NCBI GenBank assembly: GCA_905202485.1
Contig: CAJKRY010000001.1
Coordinates: 92,456-156,455, forward strand
Direction: 5' to 3'
DNA: 64,000 bases
Source of the DNA: an uncultured Methanomassiliicoccus sp.
GTDB taxonomy: Archaea; Thermoplasmatota; Thermoplasmata; Methanomassiliicoccales; Methanomassiliicoccaceae
Under the pieces are notes generated by a model. It did no database searches. It worked only from the letters and a program-made list of their open reading frames with translations, and was not told where the DNA came from. Below are positions 14,643 through 54,153 of this stretch, one piece after another. The translations under genes were made by a program, and so were the position numbers. Each line of letters begins with the position of its first letter. Within the stretch, counting starts at the first letter, position 1.

Positions 14643-14739
14643 TGCAGAAGGTAAATATCATATTTACCCAAAAGAGAACAAAACAAGAAAGTAGTAAAAA
14701 TTCAGGATGTGAATCCTGAATGATAGTAGTTAAACCCAA

Positions 14740-16694: not shown

Positions 16695-16815
16695 GTTAAC
16701 ATCTCCCAATATGATTAAGTGTATGATATGTTGCGGTTATTAATCTTTTTAATCAGAAATGATACATATAAAACTATTATCTATATTAATTAAAAATATG
16801 TTTCCTGAGAGATTA

Positions 16816-31205: not shown

Positions 31206-33026
31206 ATGAATAAACAGAGAACAGCCATATTTGTAGTGAGCGTTGCCATGCTGGCATTGGCCATATTCGCTATGCCGAATTTTGAGGACGATTATTCAGA
31301 TGATGTGGTACTCAGCGATGAAGGGGATTCGTACCCCCTGTATGATATCCACAGTGACCTTCACATCTCATACCGCATGAATGAAGATGGCAGCAGTGTT
31401 ACTGTCACGGGGCTGAAACATTCGGATATGACTGACTTAACGATACCAGAAAGTATAAAAACAAAAGACGGAAACTATAAAATCACTGCCATAGGAGATG
31501 ATGCATTCAGTAACATCATGGCTCGTGACCTTAAGAATATAAGAATTGAAGCTCCCAATATTTGCATAGGGAATCTGGCATTCTACAACTGTAACTCTCT
31601 GGAGACTATCTCATTTGCCGGCGGAGTCAGCGAAATAGGAGAACTAGCATTTTTCAACTGCAATTCTTTAAAAGATATTGAGATTAATGGAAATGATCTG
31701 AAAATACACAATTACGCATTCATGAGTTGCTCATCATTGATGTCTCTGAAACTATCAGGCAGTGTCGCTTCAATAGGGCAGTATGTATTCATGGGCTGTA
31801 CGGATCTGCATTCTGTAAACATCACAGGCAGCATAGAGATTATTGACAACAATGCATTTTACAGGTGCAATGGGCTCAAGACTGTAAATCTGCCTGCTGG
31901 GATGAAAAGCATCGGTGACAATGCATTCAAAGAGTGTGGCTCAATTGAGCGTTTTATAATAAATGGAGATAATAAAGTTTCTTTGGGAAACGATGCATTT
32001 TATGATGCTTTTGCCATAGCGGTCATACCTAATGAAAGTCCATATCTGAGAGTGGTGGCGTCATCACGAGCTGAGCTCATTACAAGCGGTATTGAGCATC
32101 CATCGAATAATCATGTACAAGTCTGCGTTGTCATACCTCCAGAAGACACGGTAATTGAAGAACGTGCATTCAGAGATTCCAGATGTGACATTGTAGAAGT
32201 AATAATGCACGACAATATCACAAAGATCGAAATGGAAGCATTCGCTTACACAAGTATATTTAAATTGGATCTTCCAGATTCTCTAACATACATAGGCGAC
32301 AGTGCATTCAAATTGAATGAAATTCACACACTAATTATTCCTGAAAATGTTACATATATCGGAGATTCGGCATTTGATTACTGCACTTATCTTTCATCAG
32401 TGTCGATACCAGAAAGTGTGGAACATATTGGGGCTTCGGCATTCGCACATTCAATATATATGAGAGAAGTTTATTTTTCACATTCAGACATGCTGCCTGA
32501 GATGCCTCACATGAGCATATATGGTGCAAATTCACTATTCTATAACTGCCAAAAAACCACACAGGGAGAAACTCATGAAGGATGGTATCCAACACTTGGC
32601 AATGGCGGTATCAATGTGTATATCAGAAGCGGCGTTAACAATACACAGTCTCTGGATAACCAATTCAACAATTTGAATATCATTGAAGTTAAAGATTATA
32701 TTGTTACATTTGATCCAAACGGCGGAACAATAGATACTATGTTTAAAACTGTAAAAGATGGAGAATGTGTAGTTCCATCTGTACACCCTCCGAGCATACG
32801 GGAAGAATGGGGCGTTTCATACATCTTTAAAGGCTGGTGCTATGGAGATGAACTTTATGATCTTAACACGCCAGTGACTGAAGACATGGTGTTAACTGCT
32901 AGCTGGGAAAGATCTGTGCGCAGCATTTCTGATGATAATAATAACATGATATACTTCCTGATAACGCTTGCAATTATCATCATAGCTGTGATATCAGTTG
33001 CATACATCTACATAAAGAAAAAATAA
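31206..33026 (+). CDS. BspA-like leucine-rich-repeat surface protein with signal peptide and C-terminal TM anchor
   Basis: N-terminal signal (AIFVVSVAMLALAIFA), >12 repeats of the about 23-aa BspA/TpLRR unit (I.D.AF..C..L..I.IP), C-terminal helix LITLAIIIIAVISVAYIYIKKK. Confidence 0.7.
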   Translation: MNKQRTAIFVVSVAMLALAIFAMPNFEDDYSDDVVLSDEGDSYPLYDIHSDLHISYRMNEDGSSVTVTGLKHSDMTDLTIPESIKTKDGNYKITAIGDDAFSNIMARDLKNIRIEAPNICIGNLAFYNCNSLETISFAGGVSEIGELAFFNCNSLKDIEINGNDLKIHNYAFMSCSSLMSLKLSGSVASIGQYVFMGCTDLHSVNITGSIEIIDNNAFYRCNGLKTVNLPAGMKSIGDNAFKECGSIERFIINGDNKVSLGNDAFYDAFAIAVIPNESPYLRVVASSRAELITSGIEHPSNNHVQVCVVIPPEDTVIEERAFRDSRCDIVEVIMHDNITKIEMEAFAYTSIFKLDLPDSLTYIGDSAFKLNEIHTLIIPENVTYIGDSAFDYCTYLSSVSIPESVEHIGASAFAHSIYMREVYFSHSDMLPEMPHMSIYGANSLFYNCQKTTQGETHEGWYPTLGNGGINVYIRSGVNNTQSLDNQFNNLNIIEVKDYIVTFDPNGGTIDTMFKTVKDGECVVPSVHPPSIREEWGVSYIFKGWCYGDELYDLNTPVTEDMVLTASWERSVRSISDDNNNMIYFLITLAIIIIAVISVAYIYIKKK

Positions 33027-33919: not shown

Positions 33920-34525
33920 ATGGAATCTAAAGAAAAAATAACAGCCATGACTGTTATTGGGGTCGTGGCAGTTGTTGCAATATTATGTGCAACAATGGTA
34001 TGGAGTTTGAGTATCGTAAATGAGCATGCTTTCAGTTCAAATGATGATTATATATATTCATATTCTAATGCTCATGTAACTGTAATGGGATCTGAAAAAG
34101 ACGGTGAATTTATTGAATCTGCATTAGATCAATATACAGATAATATAATCATACAAAGTGATTTTGAAAGTATAACTCATCCAACGATTGTATTCATCAC
34201 AGAAGATTACGCATCGCATCAGGAACATGATTATTTAGTAGAAAATATAAGATATCTAATAAATCATGGATGTCCAGTCATTACACTGTTCGAATCTCCA
34301 AATCTTCTTATTGAAGCATCCAATGGAAGTTCCAGCATCGCACAAGATTCTAATGCAAATGGATTGATACAAATAAAAAATGGGGAGCATTTGATCACTA
34401 AATGGTTTAGTGTATCTGGATTCAGTGAAGAAGGCACCATAAAAGAAGGATATATTTATGGTATATACTCCATAGTAATTTATGCAAATCACACAGAGAT
34501 TTCAGAATCTGAGATACAAGAATAA
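33920..34525 (+). CDS. hypothetical exported protein (N-terminal anchor helix)
   Basis: TAMTVIGVVAVVAILCATMVWSL then soluble domain; no recognisable motif. Confidence 0.4.
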   Translation: MESKEKITAMTVIGVVAVVAILCATMVWSLSIVNEHAFSSNDDYIYSYSNAHVTVMGSEKDGEFIESALDQYTDNIIIQSDFESITHPTIVFITEDYASHQEHDYLVENIRYLINHGCPVITLFESPNLLIEASNGSSSIAQDSNANGLIQIKNGEHLITKWFSVSGFSEEGTIKEGYIYGIYSIVIYANHTEISESEIQE

Positions 34526-34679: not shown

Positions 34680-36134
34680 TTGACTGCTGGACCTCGCGGA
34701 CCGGTAATGCTGCAGGATGTCTGGTTGTTAGAGAAACTAGCACACTTCGACAGAGAAGTGATTCCTGAAAGACGCATGCATGCTAAAGGCAGCGGAGCAT
34801 ACGGTACATTCACAGTAACACACGACATTACAAAATATACAAGAGCCAAAGTCTTCGAACCGGGAAAGAAGACTGATGTCTTTGTCCGTTTTTCTACAGT
34901 AGCCGGTGAAAGGGGCGCTGCAGACGCAGAAAGAGATATCAGAGGATTTGCCTGTAAATTCTATACTGAAGAGGGAAACTGGGATCTGGTTGGAAACAAC
35001 ACGCCTACATTCTTCATCAGAGATGTTCATGACTTCCCAGATCTCAACAGGGCTGTGAAGAGAGATCCAAAAACCAACATGCGTTCAGCACAGAATAACT
35101 GGGACTTCTGGACCATGCTCCCTGAGACTTTTCATCAAACTACAATCGTAATGTCCGACCGCGGAATTCCTGCTTCCTACAGGCACATGCATGTATTCGG
35201 TGAGCATACATTCAGCTTCTACAATGCTAAAAACGAACGCGTCTGGTGCAAGTTCCATCTGCGTACTCAGCAGGGAATCAAAAATCTGACAGATGCAGAA
35301 GCTGAAGAGTTAATCGGCAGAGACAGAGAAAGCCACGGTAGAGATCTGTATGAAGCGATTGAACGCGGAGACTACCCGCGCTGGACTATGTATGTGCAGA
35401 CCATGACTGAAGAGCAGGCAAGAAACCACTACGAGAATCCCTTTGATATTACAAAAGTCTGGAGGCATGCTGAATTCCCACTTCAGGAAGTTGGTGTTCT
35501 GGAACTTAATAGAAACCCTGAGAATTACTTTGCAGAGGTAGAGCAGGCTGCATTCACACCTGCACACGTCGTACCCGGCATAGGATTCTCACCGGACAAA
35601 TTCCTGCAGGGCCGTCTTTTCGTCTACGGAGATGCACAGCGTTACAGGTTAGGTGTAAATTACAATCAGATACCTGTTAACCGTGCAAAGTGCGAAGTTC
35701 ATGACTACCACAGGGATGGAATGATGCGTGTTGACGGCAACTACGGAGCCACTCCTTCCTATACACCAAACAGCCTGGGAGAATGGGCCGCTCAGCCGGA
35801 AGTTATGGAGCCGCCGTTAGATCTCAGCGGAGCCATGTATGCATTTGATCCCAAAGATGATCCTACAGACAACTGCTTCCGCCAGGGAGGCGAACTATAT
35901 CGTCTGATGACTGAAGACAAACGTGCTCTTTTGATTGAAAACACTGCACGCAACATTGCACCTGTTACTCCTAACATCAAATACCGCCACGCTGCCCATT
36001 GTTATCTGGCAGACGAAGAGTACGGGAAGCGCATCACAGAAGCAATGGGCATAAACTTCGAAAAAGTCAAAGAGCTTTCAAAGCTGTCCAATGCTGAACT
36101 GATAAAAGCTACCTTAGATCAGAATATACAGTAA
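34680..36134 (+). CDS. katA: monofunctional heme catalase (small-subunit type); annotated from TTG, true start probably further upstream
   Basis: Catalase core motifs RERIPERVVHAKG-like ([18 protein letters not shown]), FDRERIPE, proximal Tyr region RLFSY-like ([12 protein letters not shown]); in-frame upstream [28 protein letters not shown] is clearly catalase N-terminus but has no ATG/GTG/TTG. Confidence 0.85.
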
Positions 36135-37154: not shown

Positions 37155-38648
37155 TTACATCTTCATTGTTATTTTTTCCCGCTCTTCTTGAGATGCCATA
37201 GCCAACTTTATGACTTTATCGACATCAAGTGACAAAACTTTGGCAACTCTCGTACCGTAGTCTTCATCAACCTTATAGAATAAAGCAGTCTGGCGGTACT
37301 GTAAGCTTTCTTTAGCTCCTCCGAGGTGTCCAGAGACATTTGAAATCAAGTGGTCCTTGTCTTCATCACTTAGAACTCTTGTGTAAAGAGCCCTTGCCTG
37401 AGCAAAATCTACGTCATCTATCGGCACCTGATGACGTTTGGCTTCCTCATTCACCATCGGTGCAGGCGGTGTGTAAGACATGTCTGGAGCAGGAGCATTA
37501 GGAACAGAATTGGGATAATAATTCGGATCAGATCCAGCAATTGCATAGCTCATCGGTCCGTCCCTCTGATAAATATTCATTGCTTTAGGTGCATTGATCT
37601 TTAGCTGCTGGAAGTTTGGACCTAATCTGTAACGCTGAGTATCTGTATATGCAAACATTCTTGACTGCAGCATCCTGTCAGGAGAGGCTCCAATTCCCGG
37701 AACCATGTTGGACGGCGCAAATGCAGACTGCTCTACCTCATCAAAGTAATTATCGGGATTTTTATTGAGAACCAGCTTTCCCAAAGGAATCAGAGGAAAG
37801 TCTCCATGGTACCAGACTTTGGTTGCATCAAAAGGATCAAACTCATATTTCTCAGCCTGTTCAGGAGTCATGATCTGCACATATACAGTCCATGAAGGAT
37901 AGTCTCCTTTTTTGATAGCTTCAAATAAATCAATCGTAGCATGGTCTGCTTCTTTTCCCTTGAGCTCTATTGCCTCGTCTGCCGTAAGCGTCTCATTTCC
38001 CTGATCAGACTTGAAGGTATATTTTATCCAGACGTGTTCATTCTTTTCATTATACCACATGAAGGTATTAGTTCCAAAACCATCCATATGCCTGTAGTTT
38101 TTAGGAGTTCCACGATCTGTAAATAAGATTGTCACCTGATGAACACTTTCAGGAGTTAATGACAGAAAGTCCCAGTACATGTCATAATCGTGGAGATTGT
38201 TTTTAGGATTTCTTTTCTGGCTGTGAATGAAATCAGGAAACTTGATAGCATCCCTTATGAAGAAGACCGGAGTGTTGTTAGCTACAATATCGTAATTTCC
38301 TTCCTCAGTGTAGAACTTCACAGCAAATCCTCTCGGGTCCCTGTCGGCATCTGGACCGCCTCTTTCAGTATTGACAATGGAGAACCTTACAAAAATATCA
38401 GTTTTCTTTCCCACTTCAGAGAGAAAAGCAGCTCTCGTGTACTTGCTCAAGTCATTTGTTACTTCGAAATACCCATGCGCTCCGGTACCTTTTGCATGCA
38501 CAACCCTTTCAGGAATACGCTCCCTATTGAAGTGAGCTAGCTTTTCAGTCAGATGCACATCCTGAATAAGCGTATAACCGCTTGCAGTTATTGATGCCTG
38601 GTCATCATCTACAGGAGAACCACTTGCAGTGGTTAATTTTCCTTTCAT
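37155..38648 (-). CDS. katA: monofunctional heme catalase (second copy)
   Basis: Full N-terminus present (TLIQDVHLTEKLAHFNRERIPERVVHAKGTGAHGYF), distal His/Asn and proximal Tyr regions (RMFAYTDTQRYR); 497 aa. Confidence 0.9.
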   Translation of the reverse strand: MKGKLTTASGSPVDDDQASITASGYTLIQDVHLTEKLAHFNRERIPERVVHAKGTGAHGYFEVTNDLSKYTRAAFLSEVGKKTDIFVRFSIVNTERGGPDADRDPRGFAVKFYTEEGNYDIVANNTPVFFIRDAIKFPDFIHSQKRNPKNNLHDYDMYWDFLSLTPESVHQVTILFTDRGTPKNYRHMDGFGTNTFMWYNEKNEHVWIKYTFKSDQGNETLTADEAIELKGKEADHATIDLFEAIKKGDYPSWTVYVQIMTPEQAEKYEFDPFDATKVWYHGDFPLIPLGKLVLNKNPDNYFDEVEQSAFAPSNMVPGIGASPDRMLQSRMFAYTDTQRYRLGPNFQQLKINAPKAMNIYQRDGPMSYAIAGSDPNYYPNSVPNAPAPDMSYTPPAPMVNEEAKRHQVPIDDVDFAQARALYTRVLSDEDKDHLISNVSGHLGGAKESLQYRQTALFYKVDEDYGTRVAKVLSLDVDKVIKLAMASQEEREKITMKM

Positions 38649-38755: not shown

Positions 38756-39547
38756 TCATGGGGACTGATTGATATAGAACATCTCTGGTTTTTTGTATTC
38801 AGCACAGCTTTTCAAGAACTCCTTGGTAGCAATTTTATAAGTAATGCCGTGAAAAGCCCTTGCATTTCTTGGACAGATGTGTATGCATGCACCGCATGAG
38901 ATACAGGTCTCTTTGTTAGTTTTCTTTGGATTCTCTGCTGAGATTGAGTGTGTGGGGCATATTCTAACACACTTACACAATCCGCTGCACTTGCTGTCTC
39001 CTTTAGGATTCAGGGGCACTTTTCCTGCTGTAATATATGGTATGTTTCCCTTAACTTTAATATGCTTATAGCAGTCGGGAGAAAACTCTGTAAGCAAATG
39101 GCTACAGTTATCCGCAAACTCAGCTATGAGTTTGAGATCATTTTCATCAGGCCTGCCTGCTGCGATCTGAGGGAAGATTGAATGCTGAGCGATGAATGCA
39201 CCGGCGCCGATTACACAAAAGCCCTCCGCTTCCAAGATATCCTTCAGTTCGATTAGCGCATCTTCATAATCACGGTTACCATAGACAACCATGGCAATTG
39301 CAGGCTGCCTGTTGCCTTTTAAGTGATGCAGCATGCCTACACAAAGCTCTGGAATCCTGCCTGCATATGCTGGCATTGCTACAATAAGTACTGAATCATC
39401 TGAAACTTTGATATCCTCAGTCAAAGGTGCTTTCAATAAATTGTATTCTGTAATGTCGTTGCATATTCTGCTAGATGCCGCCTTGATAACTTTTTCTGTA
39501 TTCCCGTTAGGGCTAAAATACACCTGAGTTACTTTATCAAAGCACAT
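38756..39547 (-). CDS. flavodoxin-like domain fused to 2x[4Fe-4S] ferredoxin domain
   Basis: Flavodoxin-like N-terminus (KVTQVYFSPNGNTEKV...LIVAMPAYAG), C-terminal CKCVRICP and CISCGACIHICP clusters; start at MCFDK assumed. Confidence 0.6.
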   Translation of the reverse strand: MCFDKVTQVYFSPNGNTEKVIKAASSRICNDITEYNLLKAPLTEDIKVSDDSVLIVAMPAYAGRIPELCVGMLHHLKGNRQPAIAMVVYGNRDYEDALIELKDILEAEGFCVIGAGAFIAQHSIFPQIAAGRPDENDLKLIAEFADNCSHLLTEFSPDCYKHIKVKGNIPYITAGKVPLNPKGDSKCSGLCKCVRICPTHSISAENPKKTNKETCISCGACIHICPRNARAFHGITYKIATKEFLKSCAEYKKPEMFYINQSP

Positions 39548-39659
39548 ATACTCACCATTTTTTACAAATGCAATAGCTAACTGGTATAAAATCACATGGT
39601 ATCAATAATAATTTTAAGAATAAAAGTAAGACTAGAGATGAGACCGCTCATCCTCAGTC

Positions 39660-41012
39660 TCAGATGGTTCTTCTCTTGAGTTTACCGTCTTTGTCCCGAT
39701 AGTATGCAGTACCATACGGCGCATGCAGCAGAGGAATTATATCAGGATCATAATTGCACAGCGTGTTTAATGAATAGATTCCTGTATTAAGAGGATTGTC
39801 TAAATACTCATCCGGTTCGTCACCTGCAAAAAATCTCCAGCCGCTGTCTGGAATGTCTGGATCTGGATCCTCCCGATACATATATCCTATTTTTTCACCG
39901 TTGACCATTATGCGATCTGTGGCTTTACAGCCTAATGGTTCATACCAGTCCAGCAGTATAGATTGAATCTCTTCGCGTGGAATGGCAAGGTTTTTCTTAG
40001 ATTCAGAAACGCACCGACTTGGTCTGTTGAGATCGACAACATAATCAATGCCATCCAACAAATGCAGCAGCTCCTCTTTATTATGACTCAGTTTATATTC
40101 GATCTCTTCACTGTACAGCGGAACTATCTGATAGAAATTGATGCATTCTCCGTTCGGCATAATACATTTGTCTGCTCCTTCATCAAAGTCAACCATGGTG
40201 CAGACGATCATGCCTGAAAGTTTGGTATTCTCTGCTAAAGGCTCATTGTTTGATACAGTATGTCCCCAGGCTAACCAAGTGTTCTGCTCCCCCGGCAGCC
40301 TGGCCATAACTTTCAGCCATTTTACCGGCCAGAACCACATTTCGTTGCTGCTGTTTAAGGGCCAGTCAGGAGGAAGGCAGATAATGAGTTCTGCCCTGTC
40401 AAAGTTTTCTCCTTCGAGATTTAGCGGCACGGTCATGCGATGGGCGCCCATTCCCATAGTTACCAGCGTGTAATAATTACGTTCCGGAGTAGGCTCAATG
40501 ATTGCTATGTCTACACGAATATCCGGAGATACTATCTCATGAAAAACTCTGTTGAAAGAGCCGATGCGTTTTTCGATGTGCCTCTGAACGACTTTAAGCT
40601 GCTCTTCAGTATAGATCTCCGGGTCAAAATTTTCCTGTTTCAAACCAGCCTCTTCCTGCAGCTTTTCTTTGCATATGCCTATGTAATGCATTACGGCCTC
40701 ATCGCTCTGATCCATTTCCCAGGCCTTCTCAAATTCCTCTCTGGAGCTGTCAAAGTTCTCCAAGTAGAAATATGCGTAACCAAGCATATAATGCCAGAAG
40801 TAATCGTCTTTTCCCTCGTCCTCAATTAAAAGAAGTTGTTCAACAGCCTCATCATATCTCTTTAAATCGTTGAGGGCCCTCGCAAGATGAAAAATCACGT
40901 CGTAATCCATCTCTTCTTCAACCATTAATGAAATTTCATCCAGGATCTTCTGGAACTCCTTTTCCTCATGCCATTTATTTAATTTATAAAGAGTTTCTTT
41001 GTCCATCGTCAT
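39660..41012 (-). CDS. immunity-protein-like: shared helical N-module + SUFU-like domain + Imm33/DUF2185-like C-terminal domain
   Basis: Central region YYTLVTMGMGAHRM...WPVKWLKVMARLPGEQNTWLAWGHTV parallels SUFU motifs (human SUFU: HYISFGLSDLYG...TWPAELMQGLARY...GDHV); C-terminal GWRFFAGDEPDEY... resembles Imm33; N-terminal about 100 aa homologous to two neighbours. Confidence 0.55.
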   Translation of the reverse strand: MTMDKETLYKLNKWHEEKEFQKILDEISLMVEEEMDYDVIFHLARALNDLKRYDEAVEQLLLIEDEGKDDYFWHYMLGYAYFYLENFDSSREEFEKAWEMDQSDEAVMHYIGICKEKLQEEAGLKQENFDPEIYTEEQLKVVQRHIEKRIGSFNRVFHEIVSPDIRVDIAIIEPTPERNYYTLVTMGMGAHRMTVPLNLEGENFDRAELIICLPPDWPLNSSNEMWFWPVKWLKVMARLPGEQNTWLAWGHTVSNNEPLAENTKLSGMIVCTMVDFDEGADKCIMPNGECINFYQIVPLYSEEIEYKLSHNKEELLHLLDGIDYVVDLNRPSRCVSESKKNLAIPREEIQSILLDWYEPLGCKATDRIMVNGEKIGYMYREDPDPDIPDSGWRFFAGDEPDEYLDNPLNTGIYSLNTLCNYDPDIIPLLHAPYGTAYYRDKDGKLKRRTI

Positions 41013-41018
41013 TCCTTC

Positions 41019-42503
41019 TTATCTTAATATATAATCATCTGAAAAATTAAATGATACCATCATGACTGATCCGCTTATCTCAAGGTCATCCCCTTTTTCC
41101 TTTGCATCACAGATCGCACTATAAACTGAACTTATATAGACATAAGATGAAAATGTATCATTCAAGAAAAGATTGCTGCTAAATCCATTTATTAGCGCTT
41201 TTTGAATTACATAATAACTTGCAATCTGCGTTTTATAAACCTCTATACTTTTTCTATTCCTGTAGATCAATATTGATTCAGGAGAATGAAGATATTCAAA
41301 TGCATTTTCAGCACACATTTCCGGAATGAAAAACTGCAGCTCTTCAGCAAGATTTGAATCCTGAAGCTCTTCCGTCAGTTTTTCCAGATAATGCTGGTAA
41401 TCATCGTCAGATGCACATTGCTCAAAGAGTCTGACTGCTTTTACAGTAGCGTCTTCCAGATCTTTCTCGCTGTAAGGGTATTCCACATAAGTCCCCTCAT
41501 CCTGTGTGATGAAGAAAAACTGTTTCTTGGAACTGAACTCATTTGTTTCCCATTTAGAAGCTATTTCTGAAACTATGCTGCTGAGCTCTTCGCTGACAAT
41601 GTTATTAACACGGCATTCTGCTGTAATTTCATCTCCATTTTTAGCAGCATATACTTTGACATATGCAAATTTTTGATTTCCAAGGCGTTTGGCAATTCCG
41701 CTTTTCAACAGACTCCAGAATTCATCAATGTCGCCGCCCTCTGGGTTTTTGCCCATGCCGACAATATCTGATTTGTATGCGTGCCAGCTGTGTTTACTGC
41801 CTGCAAACTCTGTAACTAACGTTTCTGAGTTCTCTCCGGCCTTCATGATTCTGATGCCGTCCAAGACTGAGAATAGAAAACTCCCTTCTGCTAGATTAAT
41901 TGCCTTCTTCGGCGTATCTCCCAAGGCAACCGAGCACTCAAACAGTTCTCTGTCCCATGAACTGCAGTTTAGAGTAAAATACAAAACGGCCATGTTTTCC
42001 GTCAGTTCCCCTACTTCAGAAGAAATGGTTAAATCCCATTCAGGAATGAATATATTGCCTTTTTTGATCAGATTAGTTTCAGCAATCAGCTCATGAAGAC
42101 CTTCAAGAACATACTGCCGGGGGTCATCGGGGGCAGAAGAATCATCTGTACGCTTAAGATAGTAGTTACAGTCTTCCAGAAGTTCTTTGGCATCTTTGTC
42201 ATCAGGATTTAATTCAAGAACACACTCAAACTCTTTTTTAGCTTCCAGATCATTTCCCAAAAAATAATAAGCGTATCCCAGACGGTAATGCCACAAATCG
42301 TCGTCTTTTCCTTCTTCGTTTACAGAAAGCAGAAGTTTAACAGCATTTTCATAGTCTTCTAAATTATTATAAGCTCTTGCCAGTAAGAGAATGAGATCAT
42401 AATTTCTTTCAGATTCTGGAATATCTAGAATAGAGTCCACGATCTTTTGGTGTTCTTCAGATTTATGCCAGCCGTCTAACTGCTCGATGAATTCTGATGA
42501 CAT
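41019..42503 (-). CDS. paralogous N-module protein with unrelated C-terminal domain (function unknown)
   Basis: N-terminus GWHKSEEHQKIVDSI...LARAYNNLEDYENAVKLLLSVNEEGKDDDLWHYRLGYAYYFL aligns with the N-termini of 39660..41012 and 43247..44743; remainder has no recognisable motif. Confidence 0.5.
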   Translation of the reverse strand: MSSEFIEQLDGWHKSEEHQKIVDSILDIPESERNYDLILLLARAYNNLEDYENAVKLLLSVNEEGKDDDLWHYRLGYAYYFLGNDLEAKKEFECVLELNPDDKDAKELLEDCNYYLKRTDDSSAPDDPRQYVLEGLHELIAETNLIKKGNIFIPEWDLTISSEVGELTENMAVLYFTLNCSSWDRELFECSVALGDTPKKAINLAEGSFLFSVLDGIRIMKAGENSETLVTEFAGSKHSWHAYKSDIVGMGKNPEGGDIDEFWSLLKSGIAKRLGNQKFAYVKVYAAKNGDEITAECRVNNIVSEELSSIVSEIASKWETNEFSSKKQFFFITQDEGTYVEYPYSEKDLEDATVKAVRLFEQCASDDDYQHYLEKLTEELQDSNLAEELQFFIPEMCAENAFEYLHSPESILIYRNRKSIEVYKTQIASYYVIQKALINGFSSNLFLNDTFSSYVYISSVYSAICDAKEKGDDLEISGSVMMVSFNFSDDYILR

Positions 42504-42519: not shown

Positions 42520-43245
42520 TCAATAATCCAGCCTTATTGGAACTTTATTCTCTTTAGCAAACAAAACTGCTTTGTAAAATATGCAGTATGCAAATTTAGA
42601 CAAGGCGTCAAAATCAAAAGTATCTTTATCGGCATCAGAAGCTACCTCAGTATTCAACCAGCTGAGAATGGTCTCTTCATCCGCATTCCATCTCATTTTA
42701 TTCATATATTGAAGATCAGATTCCAATTGTTCCACTGTGGACATGTTAGCCTCTTTACCAGTTGGAAATATGTAACTGAATGACATGCATCCCTCAAACG
42801 GAACCCACATTTCAATTCCATTCAGAAACGGATTTGTATATGATTCGTTTATAACAAAAGTCTGCACTACAGGATCATCATTCCAATCACTGGATTTTTC
42901 ATAGAATTTAGGAACTTCTTTTCCAGAATACAGGCATGCACTTAAAATGACTAAAGCACCATAACCATCCCAGCCTGGTTTATCAGTGTAATATTCTTTT
43001 TCATTATTTTCTTCCCAAGACTTAAACAAAATGTCTTTGTCAGACAGCCCGCTTGTCAAAGCCTCCATCCAGAGTTCAACTGAGTGCTGGACTTCTTCAG
43101 CATCTATGTTTTCATTTCTCATTTCACCATTTGGTGTTATGATGTCACAGCGGATGTTATTTTGTTCAGACCACTGTTGGACAGTAGTTTTCCAGTTGCG
43201 GGTGTAATACCTTGTCAATGTACCAGCATATATATCTAGACCCAT
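42520..43245 (-). CDS. hypothetical protein within the immunity-like operon
   Basis: 241 aa, acidic, Trp-rich, no TM or signal; start codon 1 nt from upstream gene stop. Confidence 0.4.
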   Translation of the reverse strand: MGLDIYAGTLTRYYTRNWKTTVQQWSEQNNIRCDIITPNGEMRNENIDAEEVQHSVELWMEALTSGLSDKDILFKSWEENNEKEYYTDKPGWDGYGALVILSACLYSGKEVPKFYEKSSDWNDDPVVQTFVINESYTNPFLNGIEMWVPFEGCMSFSYIFPTGKEANMSTVEQLESDLQYMNKMRWNADEETILSWLNTEVASDADKDTFDFDALSKFAYCIFYKAVLFAKENKVPIRLDY

Positions 43246-43246: not shown

Positions 43247-44743
43247 TTATAACCTCATTTCAGAACTAAGATTAACTATGTTTCCATCTGGACAAAAATC
43301 GGCTAAATAAAATTCAAATTGATAATTTTTTAACAAACTGTCAATCCTTTTGAAAAATTCAGTCATGTTGTAAATCAGCAGATCTGCATACTCATACATA
43401 CTGCCGCCGGCGCTTCCCAGAGACATTCCGATTTCTCTGCCGCTCCCTTTCTCCCCAAGAACTTCTTTTATCAGATAATCTTCAAAATCATATCTGAGAT
43501 CAAACAGCTTGTCTTCATCCATTTCCATCGGCCATGTGTAGAATAGGTAAACAAGCTTAGCTCCGCAGCTCTCCATATCTGCGTATGTATCTTTTACATC
43601 AGAATGATATTCAGCAACTGAGTTTAAAAGAGATGTTAAACCGCTGAGTATGTCATATCTCAATTTGTCAGTGTCAGCATTTCCAAAGGCATATGCAACA
43701 CGGATGTCGCTGGGATTCTCGATCATTTCTTTTCCCGATGATTTTAGAATGTCGGATATTTTCTCACCCATCTGATCAATGGGAAACATATCATCCGTTG
43801 GAGAACGCAATAATGATACTGTGCTTATATAAAGTCTCAATAGATTTTCACTGAATAATTCTTTCAGCATCTTAGCAAATGTAATGTTTGCTTCACTGTC
43901 TTCAATTGATTGAAAATCTTCTGAATAAAAACACAAGTTAAATTTGTCAGATTCATAATTGAATGATATTTTAATATTTTTTATCGGAAATCCATTGACT
44001 GAAAGGTCAGAATTATAACTATTTAGTTTAGGTGCAGATAAGATAATATTCCATTTATTCTGAATGTTCTTTGGCGCCCTGAAGATAAGATATGGAAGCA
44101 GGTAGTGAAGATGACTGCTGCCTCTTAAAACAAATATGAGTTTGAATCCTTTTTCAATGAAACATTGAATGTTTTTAGTTATTAAATCCGTGCCTTCTGA
44201 AAGAAAAGCTGCGACTTCTGAATTACATGCACCATTTTCAGCAAATTCCGATAATTTTGCTTCATGGTCACAAAACCACTTCCAGAACGAAGATACTCTG
44301 TCAGAGAATTGATTCGACGGAATGAGTTCATGTCTGGAAACAAATCTCTCTGACAATTTTTCTAGATGAAGTTTGACATAATGATGAATATGACAGAATT
44401 CTACAAAGTCTGAAGCATAATCCCCTTCAGGGTTCAATTCAAATGCTTTATCAATCTCTTCATTTACTTTTGTCATCTCGTTTGTAAAATAATACGCCTG
44501 ACCCAGCATGAAATGCCACATATAATCTTCAGCACCTTTATCGCTGACTGAAAGGAGGCAATCTATGGCTTCTCGATACTTGTAAGTGTGCAGATACGCC
44601 TCAGCTAAGAGAGTTACAAGACCATAGTCCAATTTATAATCTGAAATTCTTGTAATCACTCTAACTATGCTGCAATAATCTCCGTTTCTGCGCAGATCAT
44701 CCAAACGTTGACAAAACTCCTGTTTCACCTGAATCAATTTCAT
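43247..44743 (-). CDS. paralogous N-module protein with a third, distinct C-terminal domain
   Basis: N-terminus ...YGLVTLLAEAYLHTYKYREAIDCLLSVSDKGAEDYMWHFMLGQAYYF aligns with the other two; first gene of the 4-gene minus-strand operon. Confidence 0.5.
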   Translation of the reverse strand: MKLIQVKQEFCQRLDDLRRNGDYCSIVRVITRISDYKLDYGLVTLLAEAYLHTYKYREAIDCLLSVSDKGAEDYMWHFMLGQAYYFTNEMTKVNEEIDKAFELNPEGDYASDFVEFCHIHHYVKLHLEKLSERFVSRHELIPSNQFSDRVSSFWKWFCDHEAKLSEFAENGACNSEVAAFLSEGTDLITKNIQCFIEKGFKLIFVLRGSSHLHYLLPYLIFRAPKNIQNKWNIILSAPKLNSYNSDLSVNGFPIKNIKISFNYESDKFNLCFYSEDFQSIEDSEANITFAKMLKELFSENLLRLYISTVSLLRSPTDDMFPIDQMGEKISDILKSSGKEMIENPSDIRVAYAFGNADTDKLRYDILSGLTSLLNSVAEYHSDVKDTYADMESCGAKLVYLFYTWPMEMDEDKLFDLRYDFEDYLIKEVLGEKGSGREIGMSLGSAGGSMYEYADLLIYNMTEFFKRIDSLLKNYQFEFYLADFCPDGNIVNLSSEMRL

Positions 44744-44870
44744 ATCAGGACATTAGTATTTAGAAAATGGTATTCCCTCATGAATATTGAATGCGGATAA
44801 CGTTGCAGAGACAATATTATAACAAAGTATCCAATACCCTGGCAGAAATGCTTTAACGATTAAAACGGGT

Positions 44871-46211
44871 ATGGCCATGCAGAGGGATTTAACAAACGGT
44901 AGTGTTACCAAAACAATGCTGCTATTTGCCTGGCCGATGATTTTAGGCAATCTTCTGCAACAAGTTTACAATGTCGCTGATACCCTGATAGTTGGAAGAT
45001 GCATCGGCCCTGACGCTCTGGCTGCCGTGGGGTCTTCTTTTGCATTAATGGTTTTTCTGACATCTATCATCATAGGACTGTGTATGGGAAGCGGAGTCGT
45101 TTATTCCATATTTTTTGGTGCCAGAGAGAAAGAAAAACTGAAATCCAGTTTCTTCATGTCATTTGTATTCATTGCCGTTGTTACCATTGTAATCCAAATT
45201 GCAACATTGTGCCTGGTTGATCCGATACTCAGCGCACTGCATATTCCGTCTGAAGCATACAGCGCAACTAAAAGCTACCTTACAATAACCCTGTATGGCG
45301 TTATTTTCATTTTTGTATACAATTACTTTACCTCAGTACTGAGAGGCATTGGCAACTCCACAACCCCTCTGATATTTTTAGGAGTGGCAGTAGTTCTGAA
45401 TGTCGCTCTTGATCTGATACTGATAATATCATTCGACATGGGTGTAGAAGGAGCCGCCATTGCAACTGTGATTTCTCAGGCTGTGTCTGCAGCATCTATT
45501 GCCATATACTGCATACTGAAGACCCCTGAATTAAGATTGAAAAGAAAACACCTGAAATTTGAAAAATCGATATTGAATAAGATCGTACAATATTCATCTT
45601 TGACTTGTATACAGCAGTCGATTATGAACTTCGGGATTCTGATGGTTCAAGGGCTGGTCAACAGTTTCGGAGTTTCGGTAATGGCCGCATTTGCAGCCGC
45701 AGTGAAAATCGACTCCTTTGCATACATGCCTGTCCAGGATTTTGGAAATGCATTTTCTACTTACGTAGCACAAAATTACGGAGCTAAGAAATCAGAAAGA
45801 ATACATGAAGGAATAAAATCTGCAATAAAGGTATCTTTAATCTTCTGCATCATCATTTCAGCAATAGTTGTGATATTCGCCAAACCTCTAATGACATTAT
45901 TTGTGAGTCCAGAAGATGTTGAAATTATTGCAATCGGCGTTCAGTACCTCAGAATAGAAGGAGCCTGCTACTGCGGAATAGGCTGCCTCTTCCTTCTTTA
46001 CGGTCTGTACCGCGGAGTAGGAAAACCAGCGATATCTATTGTATTAACTGTTATTTCACTGGGAACCAGAGTACTGCTGGCGTACGTCTTGGCGGCGATG
46101 CCCTCAATCGGCCTGGTAGGAATCTGGTGGGCGATACCGATAGGCTGGGTGTTAGCAGACATCGCTGGAATTATGTACTATATACGAAATAAAAAATTGA
46201 TAACTGTGTAG
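44871..46211 (+). CDS. MATE family efflux transporter
   Basis: 12 TM, LLFAWPMILGNLLQQVYNVADTLIVGR N-terminus typical of MATE/NorM. Confidence 0.85.
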   Translation: MAMQRDLTNGSVTKTMLLFAWPMILGNLLQQVYNVADTLIVGRCIGPDALAAVGSSFALMVFLTSIIIGLCMGSGVVYSIFFGAREKEKLKSSFFMSFVFIAVVTIVIQIATLCLVDPILSALHIPSEAYSATKSYLTITLYGVIFIFVYNYFTSVLRGIGNSTTPLIFLGVAVVLNVALDLILIISFDMGVEGAAIATVISQAVSAASIAIYCILKTPELRLKRKHLKFEKSILNKIVQYSSLTCIQQSIMNFGILMVQGLVNSFGVSVMAAFAAAVKIDSFAYMPVQDFGNAFSTYVAQNYGAKKSERIHEGIKSAIKVSLIFCIIISAIVVIFAKPLMTLFVSPEDVEIIAIGVQYLRIEGACYCGIGCLFLLYGLYRGVGKPAISIVLTVISLGTRVLLAYVLAAMPSIGLVGIWWAIPIGWVLADIAGIMYYIRNKKLITV

Positions 46212-46262: not shown

Positions 46263-47000
46263 TTAGTCTTCATCACCGTATGCAAGATCAATATCTATGA
46301 ACTGGATTACCAGCTGGCATATTTTTCCGTCTGCATCATATCCAAAGTACACAGGATAAGTGCCGTCCCCAAATCCTGTTTGAAAAATCGGCAGATGGTA
46401 ATTTGTTCCGGGTATTACCCAGTTTATCCAGTCCCCTTCTTTCCGCTGATGCTTCGGGTTTTCAGCATAGCTCTTTGCAAAGATCGCTGCGAAGTAATCA
46501 TCATAGATGTTTTTACCTGGATTGTTCTCAGACCAGGTGTCATAAAATTCACAGAATATATCTCTTATAGCAACATCGCATATACACGCTAAGCCTGCAT
46601 CTACATTGAAACCGAAATATTCATCATCTTCAAGTTCTGAGAGATTTTCATTCCCGATGAGCGCTTCTTCAAAAACCACAGCTTCTTTTTTAGTGAATTG
46701 AACACGTACTGCAGCATATCGTGAACAGTCAGAATCGTCTCCGCAGACTACACAGGCAACGGCATGAAACTCACCAGGAGGCACCTCTGTAAAATATGGT
46801 TCTTCTTCGCAGTCGAGATAGCACAGCGGATCCCTTACCAGGATTATTCCAGTAGGGATGGATACCAGCCCGAAGTCCAGCAGATCTAATTTCTTACCTG
46901 CCATTTCTGACAGGGTAAAGTAGTCATTTAAGGGAGCTGGACATGCTAATTTTTCACGATGTTTGTTAAATGAACTGATCCACTCTGCAGTAGGTTTCAT
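46263..47000 (-). CDS. DUF4241-like protein
   Basis: C-terminal FQTGFGDGTYPVYFGYDADGKICQLVIQFIDID resembles the DUF4241 signature; 245 aa, cytoplasmic. Confidence 0.45.
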   Translation of the reverse strand: MKPTAEWISSFNKHREKLACPAPLNDYFTLSEMAGKKLDLLDFGLVSIPTGIILVRDPLCYLDCEEEPYFTEVPPGEFHAVACVVCGDDSDCSRYAAVRVQFTKKEAVVFEEALIGNENLSELEDDEYFGFNVDAGLACICDVAIRDIFCEFYDTWSENNPGKNIYDDYFAAIFAKSYAENPKHQRKEGDWINWVIPGTNYHLPIFQTGFGDGTYPVYFGYDADGKICQLVIQFIDIDLAYGDED

Positions 47001-50157: not shown

Positions 50158-50781
50158 ATGGAGAAATATGAAAAGTATCTGCACATGCTGGTGGATGAAA
50201 TCCACTCCACAATTTTTGCTACAGTAGACAGCAGCGGAAATCCTGTGACTTGTGCAATAGACATAATGCTAGCAGATGAAGATGGGCTATACTTTCTGAC
50301 CGCCAAAGGAAAAGCATTCTATGAACGCCTTGTAGCTCATCCGATTATATCGCTTACAGGAGTAAAAGGCAAAGACACCATGTCTTCAAAGTCTGTGACA
50401 ATCTGCGGAAAGGTAAAGGAGATTGGAGACGGCCTCCTTTCCGAAATTTTCGCAAAGAATCAGTACATGGCTGATATATATCCTGAAGAAAAAAGCCAGA
50501 AAGCATTGACTGTCTTTCAGATTTATGAAGGTGAGGGGGAGTTCTTTGATCTCAGTGTAAAGCCGATATTCAGAGAAAAGTTTTCATTTGGAAATACTGC
50601 CGTCAAGGAAACAGGATACTTTGTCACAGGAAAATGCGACGGCTGCGGATTATGCGTCGATATCTGTCCTCAGAAATGCATTGATGCATCATGTATTCCA
50701 TTTAGAATTGAAGAGGAACACTGCCTGCATTGCGGCAGATGTGCTGAAGTATGCAACCAGCAGGCCATAGAAAGAAGATGA
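50158..50781 (+). CDS. pyridoxamine-5'-phosphate-oxidase-like FMN-binding split-barrel domain fused to 2x[4Fe-4S] ferredoxin
   Basis: N-terminal PNPOx-like fold (IFATVDSSGNPVTCAIDIM), C-terminal CDGCGLCVDICP and CLHCGRCAEVCN. Confidence 0.6.
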   Translation: MEKYEKYLHMLVDEIHSTIFATVDSSGNPVTCAIDIMLADEDGLYFLTAKGKAFYERLVAHPIISLTGVKGKDTMSSKSVTICGKVKEIGDGLLSEIFAKNQYMADIYPEEKSQKALTVFQIYEGEGEFFDLSVKPIFREKFSFGNTAVKETGYFVTGKCDGCGLCVDICPQKCIDASCIPFRIEEEHCLHCGRCAEVCNQQAIERR

Positions 50782-51554
50782 TAAAAATGAAACAGGAAAA
50801 ACGCCTCCAATGGCTGATTGAATATCTTCTGCAAGAAAATGAAGACTATCGAAAAATACCGTCGTCTGAGTATGAAAGAAAACAGTTGCTGCGGGCCTTG
50901 ATGAATGTAAGGATGCCAAACGGAATTGACGAAAAATTCTTAGAAATACAGGATGAGTATCTCTCAGAAGAACTGTCAAAGAAGACGATTGCTTCATTGA
51001 AGAATATTAGCCCTGTGGATGAGCATATTTACCTCTGGAAAGGAGATATTACCACACTGGAAGTGGATGCCATTGTTAATGCTGCCAACAGCTCGCTTTT
51101 AGGATGCTTCGTTCCCGGGCATGCCTGTATTGATAATGCAATTCATTCTGCAGCAGGAGTGCAACTCAGGCTTGCATGCGATGAAATCATAACGAAGCAG
51201 GGAAAGAAAGAACCCACTGGAACATCTAAGATAACTTTTGCATACAATCTGCCGTGCCGTTATGTCATTCATACGGTCGGACCGATAATTCAAAATGAAG
51301 TCACAAAGAGAGAATGCGATCTGCTCGAATCCTGCTACATGTCGTGTCTGAATCTTGCTGCTGATCATGATGTAAAAAGCATAGCCTTATGCTGTATATC
51401 TACGGGAGAGTTTCATTTCCCCAATGAGCTTGCAGCCGAGATTGCTGTGCACTCTGTGAAAAAATTCCTAAATAATCATAAAATGGACGTAATATTCAAT
51501 GTTTTCAAAGAAGTGGACTATGATATCTACAGACGATTACTCAATACAAATTGA
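50778..51554 (+). CDS. macrodomain protein (MacroD-type ADP-ribosyl hydrolase, SirTM-associated type)
   Basis: GDITTLEVDAIVNAANSSLLG...GACIDNAIHSAAG macrodomain motifs after an about 90-aa helical N-extension; ATG overlaps upstream stop (ATGA). Confidence 0.75.
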   Translation: MIKMKQEKRLQWLIEYLLQENEDYRKIPSSEYERKQLLRALMNVRMPNGIDEKFLEIQDEYLSEELSKKTIASLKNISPVDEHIYLWKGDITTLEVDAIVNAANSSLLGCFVPGHACIDNAIHSAAGVQLRLACDEIITKQGKKEPTGTSKITFAYNLPCRYVIHTVGPIIQNEVTKRECDLLESCYMSCLNLAADHDVKSIALCCISTGEFHFPNELAAEIAVHSVKKFLNNHKMDVIFNVFKEVDYDIYRRLLNTN

Positions 51555-53826: not shown

Positions 53827-54153
53827 GTGAAGGAAATGAATCTGGACAAAGCAATGAAACGATACATTCCAATGAGTGAGACCATGTTCTACATTCTCCT
53901 ATCTCTTCGTGAAGAACGCCATGGATATGGAATAATGCAACATGTTGAAGAACTGACACATGGAAGAATCAAGCTTGGAGCAGGAACCATCTATCAAAGT
54001 CTAAGTAAACTGAACGGAGACGAGCTTATCAGACCAACTGAAGAAGTAGACAGGCAGAAAAAATATGTGATTACTGAGTTAGGAAATCAAATTTTGACAA
54101 AAGAAGCAGACAGAATAAGAGAACTATACAGCGCAGTGGAGGAGTTGCTATGA
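53827..54153 (+). CDS. PadR-family transcriptional regulator
   Basis: Winged HTH YILLSLREERHGYGIMQHVEELTHGRIKLGAGTIYQSLSKL typical of PadR. Confidence 0.75.
   Translation: MKEMNLDKAMKRYIPMSETMFYILLSLREERHGYGIMQHVEELTHGRIKLGAGTIYQSLSKLNGDELIRPTEEVDRQKKYVITELGNQILTKEADRIRELYSAVEELL

Follow-up and report, generated by a model that had tools for sequence, protein, structure and literature searches.

How a protein built from bacterial immunity-type domains comes to be encoded by a gut archaeon, and what it might do there, is the question raised by a gene at positions 39660..41012 (minus strand; 450 aa) of a 64-kb stretch of DNA, referred to here as the window. To our knowledge, hardly any antagonism between gut bacteria and gut archaea has been documented. 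The window had been described, from its letters, as part of an archaeal chromosome, and its gene content agrees with this description: deoxyhypusine synthase (453 bits) and ApgM (546 bits) serve as archaeal host markers, and a proteasome beta subunit, aCPSF1, the RFC large subunit and FEN1 were recognised by eye in the translations. The genomes nearest to the window are titled Methanomassiliicoccus, and by these sequence markers the host is an archaeon, a Methanomassiliicoccus.

The closest named non-archaeal homologues of the protein all come from Clostridia, as would be expected if a bacterial fragment had been wrongly fused to archaeal sequence during assembly or binning. However, archaeal hallmarks flank the locus on one contig (on one side the RFC large subunit, at 28-29.5 kb; on the other, at 55-59.6 kb, IleRS, FEN1 and an archaeal-type tRNA-Asp), the same arrangement recurs in separate, independent assemblies (123, 275, 383 and 638 kb), and GC and GC3 of the gene are those of host core genes. 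A chimeric assembly is effectively refuted by the archaeal flanks, the independent assemblies and the host-like composition, and retains only a negligible probability.

The 450-aa product was dissected with the list of open reading frames, Pfam profiles, an AlphaFold2 model and Foldseek comparisons. Met3 is an alternative possible start of the frame and yields the 448-aa form called in related contigs. The N-terminal TPR module (40650..41012, minus strand; residues 1-121) is all-helical with eight helices, scores 30.1 bits with TPR_8 and matches TPR design structures in Foldseek at a target-normalised TM-score (TMt) of ~0.8; this segment of ~120 aa had been missed by the sequence-only reading of the window. 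A SUFU-type domain (40020..40520, minus strand; residues 165-331), termed Imm-SuFu in the nomenclature of Zhang 2012, was recognised by Pfam hmmscan with PF05076, which scored 156.8 bits (cut-off 25; E 6.3e-46) and was matched over positions 3-172 of its 172. The C-terminus carries an Imm33 (DUF2185) domain (39672..39929, minus strand; residues 362-447), to which PF09951 was assigned with 117.4 bits (cut-off 25.4; E 2.5e-34), the match spanning positions 1-85 of the 87 in the profile. Both domains had been proposed previously, and the three segments quoted with them are all present in the translation: YYTLVTMGMGAHRM at residues 180-193, WPVKWLKVMARLPGEQNTWLAWGHTV at residues 228-253 and GWRFFAGDEPDEY at residues 391-403. 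The protein has no signal peptide and its N-terminus is hydrophilic and helical; it is soluble and cytoplasmic, and its three modules are the TPR head, the SUFU-type domain and Imm33.

Homologues of the protein number 896 at E<=1e-5, and an alignment of 58 of them served as input for the AlphaFold2 model, which has a mean pLDDT of 91.8. Best matches of the model in the PDB were human SUFU (4blb, 1m1l), Drosophila SUFU (4kma) and the Neisseria gonorrhoeae SUFU homologue 3k5j, the last with a TMt of 0.66; E values of these best matches were about 3e-7 to 1e-6, and Foldseek matched human and fly SUFU with a probability of 1.00 and E values of 2.6e-7 to 2e-6. A PDB search with the sequence of the 450-aa protein retrieved TPR proteins only, and SUFU structures were reached solely via fold comparison. 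In the family alignment, invariant columns fall within both quoted SUFU segments (T185, G187, G189 and M193 in the first; W228, P229, K234, A237, P240, W246, G250 and H251 in the second). In the Imm33 domain, W392 is invariant in 58 sequences, and residues 361-448 of the model form six short strands (five of at least 3 residues) and short helices; these features fit the mostly-beta Imm33 with a conserved tryptophan described by Zhang 2012. Of the SUFU residues listed in the same work (GxS, E, E, DxxR), the subfamily alignment contains an invariant GxG (T185, G187, G189) rather than GxS, as well as E208 and E303, with no clear DxxR; the positions given are those of the subfamily alignment.

The earlier description had also aligned the segments with human SUFU. 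A simple profile-sequence comparison with a human SUFU fragment yielded no meaningful alignment, and residue-level equivalence to the human motifs would rest on the Pfam and fold matches. The N-terminal domain of animal SUFU has the same fold (Foldseek E ~3e-7, TMt 0.5-0.6 to 1m1l and 6lph, for the predicted model), but identity is just 13-18%, and the archaeal protein lacks the SUFU C-terminal domain and has TPR and Imm33 partner domains instead. We know of no Hedgehog pathway in archaea.

The gene had been regarded as an orphan, a view that its surroundings do not sustain. It is the 3'-most of four co-directional genes, all on the minus strand, in the order TPR-unk498, unk241, TPR-DUF6348 and TPR-SUFU-Imm33. 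The first (43247..44743; 498 aa) encodes the common TPR module together with a C-terminal domain without a family name, here called unk498C, and gave weak TPR matches only in Pfam. The second, unk241 (42520..43245; 241 aa), belongs to no Pfam family; its predicted fold shows weak resemblance to those of a DNA-mimic protein and of a CdiI immunity protein. The third (41019..42503; 494 aa), 6 nt upstream of the SUFU gene, contains DUF6348 (PF19875, E 9.8e-41). A homologous N-terminal TPR module is common to three of the four proteins: that of the SUFU protein is 43% identical over 112 aa to that of the 494-aa protein (BLASTP E 3e-24) and 29% identical to that of the 498-aa protein (E 1e-15). Two of the four lack a named immunity domain.

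According to the list of open reading frames, the genes of this cassette are separated by 1, 16 and 6 nt, gaps that suggest a single transcription unit starting at 44744..44870, and the four genes are probably co-transcribed. This interval (minus strand), an AT-rich stretch of 127 nt upstream of the first cassette gene and shared with a divergent MATE gene, is judged from its sequence to be the presumed promoter. The presumed end of the transcription unit lies in the 64 nt past the SUFU stop codon (39596..39659, minus strand), where a short inverted repeat is followed by T-rich runs. A DUF4241 gene (46263..47000, minus strand; PF14025, E 1.9e-72) is separated from the cassette by the MATE gene in this genome; in related species (loci L081 and L002) it lies directly upstream of the cassette in the same orientation.

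The components of the cassette recur together in bacteria. A 2072-aa open reading frame from Holdemania has the domain order Imm68–Imm33–TPR–SUKH–DUF4261–SUFU–DUF7832–DUF4253; it also includes the unk498C domain, and genes for unk241 and DUF4241 adjoin it. The unk498C domain is found within giant multi-domain immunity reading frames at further loci (L080, L068, L066 and others), is fused to TPR-SUFU in Lawsonibacter (L018), where a DUF4241 gene precedes the TPR-SUFU-unk498C fusion, and adjoins the SUFU gene at another archaeal locus (L040). In Lawsonibacter faecis, the DUF4241 gene is 64% identical to that of the window and overlaps the TPR-SUFU fusion by 4 nt; DUF4241 neighbours SUFU reading frames in eight further Clostridia loci. 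A DUF6348 gene lies immediately upstream of the SUFU-Imm33 gene on a Methanomassiliicoccaceae contig from a termite (L017), and tblastn located a DUF6348 match adjoining the SUFU gene on a Bacillota contig, also from a termite (L052). Since every cassette domain and DUF4241 recur beside or inside giant Clostridia multi-immunity proteins, the block resembles a heterogeneous polyimmunity locus and, by sequence comparison, looks like a disassembled version of these giants. It is important to note that SUFU and Imm33 are the named immunity families here, and that DUF6348, unk241 and unk498C are tied to immunity solely by co-occurrence or fusion with such domains.

Most features of the SUFU gene product have precedents. 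Gene neighbourhood connects both Imm-SuFu and Imm33 with HNH-fold toxins (Zhang 2012, Biol Direct 7:18, PMC3482391); the two domains are fused to one another and to TPR, with SUFU-Imm33-TPR fusions catalogued in 2012, and are typical of toxin-less polyimmunity loci with one gene orientation (PMC3482391). The protein shares with those polyimmunity proteins the combination of PF05076 and PF09951 in a fusion with TPR repeats, the cytoplasmic character without a signal peptide or an adjacent toxin, and, through its cassette, the neighbouring genes and domains of the giant Clostridia multi-immunity proteins. It differs in that its TPR-headed subfamily has no toxin neighbour in the loci examined and that its host is archaeal: most immunity superfamilies are absent from archaea, the 2012 phyletic lists of Imm-SuFu and Imm33 contain no archaea, and extended polyimmunity loci were reported from four bacterial phyla only (PMC3482391). 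Compared with the heterogeneous polyimmunity loci of these phyla (Bacteroidetes, Firmicutes, Proteobacteria and Actinobacteria), which by description comprise four or more tandem genes for unrelated immunity proteins, the cassette has in common four tight co-directional genes, structurally unrelated immunity-type domains, a polycistronic look and no toxin. In contrast to them, it is small, most of its proteins share a TPR head, two lack a named immunity domain, and its content is fixed in three species and near-identical between strains rather than strain-variable (PMC3482391). These loci also often adjoin a XerC/D-type recombinase, and none was found by the cassette.

Searches for a toxin bear on whether the immunity-type proteins could protect against toxins of the archaeon's own making. 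Cognate toxin genes might reside elsewhere in the Methanomassiliicoccus genome, with the cassette guarding against self or sibling intoxication rather than against bacteria. Classical polymorphic toxin systems do occur in some methanoarchaea, such as Methanosarcina acetivorans (PMC3482391), the immunity families would be identical to those of a toxin-less set, and conservation at genus level would fit a fixed toxin-immunity pair. However, cognate immunity genes normally lie directly downstream of their toxin, according to a source citing Zhang 2012 and Makarova 2019, whereas no toxin was found within ±10 kb in the three species read. The 64-kb window likewise contained no toxin, toxin cassette or secretion gene, as had been claimed earlier, and no toxin was found in the archaeal relatives examined. 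Protection from self or kin is considered improbable. When the 133 neighbours of 20 bacterial TPR-SUFU genes were surveyed by Pfam, neither toxin nor secretion families recurred among the 25 most frequent ones, which indicates that this subfamily has no direct toxin link. The full-text literature searched contained no toxin-neutralisation experiment on a SUFU-type or Imm33 domain and nothing relevant on DUF4241, DUF6348 or YfbM.

The locus had further been likened to an acquired defence island. Its evolutionary behaviour argues for something more settled. The same four genes are syntenic in at least three Methanomassiliicoccus species (L081/L001 and L002 beside the window), and the array is 99.4-99.8% identical in nucleotides to a contig of the same species, reached via the unk241 protein. 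The dN/dS ratios of the array genes, 0.08–0.24, denote purifying selection, and they can be used for the closest pair only because dS is saturated between the window and the 67% species. At the same time, dN is 0.106–0.195 for array genes versus 0.029–0.036 for flanking genes, ~3–7 times as high. No recombinase was found among the reading frames read or scanned around the cassette, nor in the gene calls for L081 and L085, and plasmid, phage and viral-contig searches returned distant single-domain matches only, with no close copy of the cassette genes. PADLOC-DB anti-phage models gave one generic TPR match (24 bits) to one of the five proteins and no match to the other four. Synteny, purifying selection, host-like GC and near-identity between strains together point to an old, fixed acquisition and not to a mobile island.

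The acquired interbacterial defence (AID) clusters of gut Bacteroidales, reportedly described by Ross et al. in Nature in 2019, are said to lie on mobile elements with recombinases, to vary between strains and to have demonstrated cognate T6SS effectors. The cassette resembles them in concept, as a group of orphan immunity genes in a gut microbe that has no matching toxins and presumably gained the genes horizontally from its community. It departs from them in its fixed chromosomal position and uniform presence among strains, with neither a mobile element nor a recombinase found and no demonstrated effectors, and its nearest relatives belong to Clostridia, not Bacteroidales.

A bacterial origin had been suggested. 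The SUFU gene has a Bacillota/Clostridia affinity that is supported by sequence comparison, and the Methanomassiliicoccus sequences form a clade with 100% bootstrap support in a neighbour-joining (NJ) tree. In contrast, the bacterial sister group of this clade receives 10% bootstrap support in NJ trees, so the donor can be named only as Clostridia/Oscillospiraceae-like, and the nearest relatives are not the Bacteroidales that had been put forward as one candidate source. Bacterial relatives reach no more than 53% identity with the SUFU gene and 64% with the DUF4241 gene. Other gut and termite methanogens carry SUFU genes that are non-monophyletic with the Methanomassiliicoccus one.

The stability of the cassette invites a different reading, in which the TPR, SUFU and Imm33 modules sequester or chaperone an endogenous partner, comparable to the animal SUFU–Gli pair, and were borrowed from bacteria for an ordinary cytoplasmic function in housekeeping or regulation. 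Gene content that is stable across species and near-identical between strains would suit such a role, as would the strength of purifying selection (dN/dS 0.08). The bacterial TPR-SUFU genes sit among unrelated housekeeping genes without a toxin, and the same gene is present in both Anaerotruncus colihominis strains. Immunity domains have repeatedly been re-used for other protein-protein interactions (Zhang 2012, PMC3482391), and the Imm33-containing PA2504 was first isolated as an RppH partner in Pseudomonas; the one functional study found on this DUF2314-DUF2185 protein reported no phenotype indicating its function. Nevertheless, the cassette domains co-travel with named immunity domains (Imm68, SUKH, Imm33) in giant proteins of the polyvalent-immunity type, their distribution in prokaryotes is patchy and tracks habitat, including the non-monophyletic gut and termite-gut methanogens, and divergence of the array genes outpaces that of the flanking genes several-fold. 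On balance, a housekeeping or regulatory role is considered unlikely.

The interpretation favoured here, with a probability of roughly 0.6, is that the cassette is a toxin-less set of immunity-type proteins acquired from gut Clostridia and vertically retained. A simple model would have an ancestor of several Methanomassiliicoccus species take the cassette from gut Clostridia, after which it would have been held by vertical descent under purifying selection. The cassette would then constitute a standing set of immunity proteins without toxins, each domain of which might bind and block the catalytic domain of a proteinaceous toxin entering the cytoplasm. Family association would make nucleases of the HNH/EndoVII fold the targets of the SUFU and Imm33 domains, and the TPR head may act as a common scaffold or adaptor. 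The toxins would presumably come from bacterial neighbours or other archaea. A role in shielding the archaeon from toxins is plausible, with immunity read from family membership only.

More generally, the cassette and the unrelated SUFU genes in termite-gut and other methanogens suggest that the protein toxins faced by neighbouring bacteria also confront methanogens. A bolder proposal, possible but doubtful, is that protein toxins injected by bacterial neighbours or rival archaea do strike gut and termite-gut methanogens, and that these have repeatedly captured bacterial immunity cassettes as a means of survival; in that case the TPR-headed four-gene operon would represent the first polyimmunity locus in archaea, with unk241, unk498C, DUF6348 and DUF4241 as new families of immunity proteins. 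If so, captured cassettes of this kind would be direct genomic evidence of a cross-domain toxin-immunity arms race, and the locus could offer a first functional handle on these four families, which are abundant in gut Clostridia. Were the role one of housekeeping, the locus would simply be a further case of a gut archaeon taking over a block of bacterial genes.

Transfer of an immunity gene out of gut bacteria has a parallel in PoNi, which moved from Ruminococcus into anaerobic gut fungi (Rizvi et al. 2020, bioRxiv 10.1101/2020.10.15.341461). That case involves another protein family and a eukaryotic recipient, and identity to the donor exceeds 70% there, above the values for the SUFU and DUF4241 genes here. 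What the present analysis documents, in a human-associated Methanomassiliicoccus, is a cassette for bacterial immunity-type proteins that is conserved, under selection and free of toxin genes. The protein type is already known, and the archaeal cassette adds a further member to it. The expectation that such proteins would be largely undescribed in archaea is overstated at the level of annotation: the RefSeq protein WP_400207795.1, an orthologue in Candidatus Methanomassiliicoccus, is already named Imm33 domain-containing protein.

The gene at 39660..41012 (minus strand; 450 aa in the ORF list) encodes a TPR–SUFU–Imm33 protein, and the three peptide segments cited in the sequence-only reading are all present in its translation. 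Pfam gives strong, full-length matches to SUFU (PF05076, residues 165-331, 156.8 bits, E = 6.3e-46) and Imm33 (PF09951, residues 362-447, 117.4 bits, E = 2.5e-34), which bears out the identities proposed in that reading; an all-helical TPR module (residues 1-121; TPR_8, 30.1 bits) had gone unmentioned. An AlphaFold2 model was computed with 58 homologues as input (mean pLDDT 91.8). When it was compared with the PDB in Foldseek, the top ranks were the SUFU proteins of human and Drosophila and 3k5j, the SUFU homologue of Neisseria gonorrhoeae, with E between about 3e-7 and 1e-6 and, for 3k5j, a target-normalised TM-score of 0.66, confirming the predicted SUFU fold; TPR proteins corresponding to the head of the protein ranked next. 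A PDB sequence search detected the TPR part alone, and profile comparison with a human SUFU fragment yielded nothing informative on the residue-by-residue match to human SUFU proposed in the sequence-only reading. The SUFU/Imm33 family assignment is solid. As had been noted, the protein lacks a signal peptide, since its N-terminus is hydrophilic and helical.

The gene is not the lone orphan it had been taken for, but the last member of a cassette of four consecutive minus-strand genes separated by 1, 16, and 6 nt. The first (43247..44743, 498 aa) encodes a TPR head followed by an unnamed C-terminal domain, here unk498C; the second (42520..43245, 241 aa) a protein without family, unk241; and the third (41019..42503, 494 aa) a TPR head with DUF6348 (E = 1e-40). 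The three larger products share homologous N-terminal heads of ~110 aa; the head of the SUFU protein has 43% identity with the one in the 494-aa product (E = 3e-24) and 29% with the one in the 498-aa product (E = 1e-15). A 127-nt AT-rich spacer lies upstream of the first gene and a short inverted repeat with T-runs downstream of the last, and we infer that the genes are co-transcribed. In the window and in a same-species contig (L085), a divergent MATE efflux gene (44871..46211, plus strand) separates the cassette from a DUF4241 gene on the cassette's strand (46263..47000, E = 2e-72). MATE is missing from three related Methanomassiliicoccus loci (L081, L001, and L002), where DUF4241 runs directly into the four cassette genes as a co-directional row of five; in L081, the SUFU and catalase genes are separated by an insertion that encodes a 461-aa protein, FecCD, and an ABC ATPase. 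Downstream of the cassette, an EFR1-type flavodoxin-ferredoxin gene is a single 279-aa ORF in the window (38756..39595) and is called as two (110 and 159 aa) in L085 (13651..14490, 99.6% identical), which suggests a frameshift or a start-site difference.

The window is archaeal DNA. It encodes deoxyhypusine synthase (453 bits, cut-off 350) and the archaeal-type phosphoglycerate mutase ApgM (546 bits), and its translations, read by eye, include proteasome beta subunit, aCPSF1, RFC large subunit, TYW1, geranylgeranyl reductase, a UbiA-type prenyltransferase, FEN1, and IleRS. It also carries a tRNA-Asp with the T-arm GGTTCAAATCC, which we take to be archaeal-looking. A scan that covered a single genome for each prokaryotic species placed the top two matches of the SUFU protein (80% and 67% identity) on 383-kb and 275-kb contigs of uncultured Methanomassiliicoccus sp., and a 123-kb Logan contig is 98.3% identical to the window across 20.7 kb. 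The base composition of the SUFU gene (GC 0.432, GC3 0.470) is like that of host core genes. A chimeric assembly was ruled out because archaeal core genes flank the SUFU gene on both sides and the arrangement is repeated in independent assemblies.

Counterparts of the cassette were sought by local tblastn of its proteins against 84 loci, and all cassette domains were found fused to or adjoining SUFU domains in gut Clostridia. Genes for unk241 lie directly 3′ of giant SUFU-containing ORFs in four loci (L048, L058, L068, and L080) and in the same locus as such an ORF in three (L062, L064, and L078). The unk498C domain is internal to these giant ORFs, which are 1000-2200 aa long. Lawsonibacter faecis encodes a 694-aa TPR-SUFU-unk498C fusion; its gene and a DUF4241 gene that is 64% identical to the window's share a 4-nt overlap, and eight further loci have DUF4241 as a neighbour. 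In a termite-gut contig of Methanomassiliicoccaceae, the gene immediately upstream of SUFU-Imm33 encodes DUF6348, and in one of Bacillota, also from termite gut, a DUF6348 gene adjoins SUFU (tblastn match). Single ORFs of 1000-2233 aa in many gut Clostridia (L039-L080) combine SUFU, Imm33, Imm68, SUKH, DUF4261, DUF7832, DUF4253, unk498C, and repeated copies of one TPR head, which appears to be a recurring spacer ahead of immunity-type domains. The 2072-aa ORF of Holdemania filiformis (Imm68–Imm33–TPR–SUKH–DUF4261–SUFU–DUF7832–DUF4253) matches the "polyimmunity protein" type of Zhang et al. 2012 (PMC3482391), who also recorded SUFU-Imm33 and TPR fusions and toxin-less, co-directional "polyimmunity loci". 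Because its domains recur with SUFU in such proteins, the archaeal cassette looks like a giant polyimmunity protein divided over four genes.

Homologues of the full TPR-SUFU-Imm33 architecture number 896 (E<=1e-5), and those that carry a name are Clostridia (Anaerotruncus, Eubacteriaceae, and Oscillospiraceae). Methanomassiliicoccus matches (62-90% identity) are followed by Oscillospiraceae or Clostridiales MAGs at 53%. In a neighbour-joining tree of the SUFU-Imm33 region (300 bootstrap replicates), Methanomassiliicoccus sequences form a single clade in 100% of replicates and 0% unite all archaeal sequences in a clade; the sequence from termite Methanomassiliicoccaceae groups with an unnamed metagenomic protein (84%). 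A SUFU-only tree places this termite sequence and a Methanobacteriota sequence among termite-gut bacteria, and apart from both a SUFU-only gene of Methanimicrococcus, which has an S-layer gene and genes for archaeal ribosomal proteins beside it. From these topologies, the archaeal sequences seem to represent two or three separate lineages at least. The bacterial (Bacteroidales or Firmicutes) origin put forward earlier holds insofar as the best non-archaeal matches are Clostridia; because the trees do not resolve the deep branches, the donor can be narrowed no further than Clostridia-like.

The cassette is syntenic in three Methanomassiliicoccus species. Between the window and L081, dN and dN/dS (the ratios being rough because dS is near saturation) are 0.106 and 0.08 for SUFU-Imm33, 0.107 and 0.11 for TPR-DUF6348, 0.132 and 0.19 for unk241, and 0.195 and 0.24 for TPR-unk498, with amino-acid identities to L081 and L002 of 80% and 67%, 82% and 56%, 76% and 53%, and 65% and 34%, respectively. 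The flanking catalase, Crp, and DUF4241 genes give dN 0.029-0.036, dN/dS 0.02-0.06, and identities of 93-95% and 66-87%. The cassette genes are functional, and they diverge faster than the flanking genes. The array is 99.4-99.8% identical in nucleotide sequence to the same-species contig, that is, without strain variability, and searches of plasmids, phages, and viral contigs found no close copy. Together with the synteny, this makes the cassette look unlike a recently acquired, mobile defence island.

Beyond the identity, fold, organisation, origin, and selection of the cassette, which these comparisons establish, the best-supported reading, at a probability of roughly 0.6, is that its products act as immunity proteins against toxins reaching the cytoplasm. 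They would form a standing cytoplasmic set that binds and blocks incoming toxin domains, by family association mainly HNH/EndoVII-fold nucleases, to which Imm-SuFu and Imm33 have been tied (Zhang et al. 2012, PMC3482391). Against it, the locus is fixed, and the 64-kb window, as had been noted, contains no toxin or secretion gene. In Pfam scans of 133 genes around 20 TPR-SUFU genes of bacteria, the 25 commonest families include no recurrent toxin or secretion family and are unrelated housekeeping only. The literature searched contains no toxin-neutralisation experiment for a SUFU or Imm33 domain, and the only functional study found there, of the DUF2314-DUF2185 protein PA2504, reported no function-indicating phenotype. 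A binding or regulatory role outside immunity is a less likely alternative. Immunity to the archaeon's own toxins, whose genes would lie elsewhere in the genome, is improbable.

The domain combination and the concept are already known (Zhang et al. 2012, PMC3482391); according to the same study, most immunity superfamilies are without archaeal members and extended polyimmunity loci are known from four bacterial phyla only. The description of the gene as unusual and largely undescribed in archaea stands in part: RefSeq already names the 67% orthologue of Candidatus Methanomassiliicoccus (WP_400207795.1) "immunity protein Imm33 domain-containing protein", but the literature searched contains no archaeal four-gene TPR-headed polyimmunity-like cassette. 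Nor does it report conservation of the cassette across gut Methanomassiliicoccus species, further methanogens of gut or termites with SUFU genes that are non-monophyletic with this one, or a link of unk241, unk498C, DUF6348, and DUF4241 to the polyimmunity network. Transfer of a PoNi immunity gene from Ruminococcus to gut fungi (Rizvi et al. 2020, bioRxiv 10.1101/2020.10.15.341461) is a close parallel, and the cassette offers a testable lead to bacteria-archaea antagonism in the gut.

The 29-54 kb region looks like a lower-GC accessory block of redox and stress genes. The host is a strictly anaerobic methanogen, and two catalase paralogues (34680..36134, plus; 37155..38648, minus; ~48% identical) lie either side of a radical-SAM gene, close to Hcp/prismane, a Crp-family regulator, ferredoxins, a PNPOx-like protein, and the EFR1-type gene. 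The 606-aa product of 31206..33026 (plus), kept in related species, has BspA-type LRR_5 repeats (231.7 bits), a Listeria-Bacteroides repeat (Flg_new), a signal-sequence-like hydrophobic N-terminal stretch, and a C-terminal membrane anchor; these predicted features mark it as an adhesin-like surface protein of bacterial style, here encoded by an archaeon. Adjoining it and a YgjP/SprT-like metallopeptidase gene, 33920..34525 (plus; GC 0.32, GC3 0.21) encodes a 201-aa product that has a hydrophobic helix at its N-terminus and matches nothing in Pfam. It is ~69% identical to L085 at the nucleotide level, with indels, in surroundings 98-100% identical, and its predicted product is a small membrane or secreted protein, hypervariable at the level of strains.

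A macro-domain gene (50751..51554, plus; 130 bits) overlaps by 56 nt 51499..52371 (plus; 290 aa, no Pfam match), whose product is sirtuin-like by eye with a GGGSG...CxxC motif; the two may be a candidate macro-plus-SIR2-type ADP-ribosylation pair. The stretch 14650..16800 has low GC (0.37-0.40) and short ORFs only, including a 58-aa ORF with a CxxC...CxxC pattern (15298..15474) and a cysteine-rich 122-aa ORF (15550..15918); an RNA family search of it detected none. The gene at 558..2018 (minus) encodes a 486-aa protein in which two PPK2 (polyphosphate kinase 2) domains lie in tandem (413 bits over two stretches). A small PadR-like regulator gene (53827..54153, plus; by eye) overlaps that of a DUF2812 membrane protein (54150..54689, plus; 69.9 bits), a Firmicutes-typical pair that here adjoins the archaeal IleRS gene.
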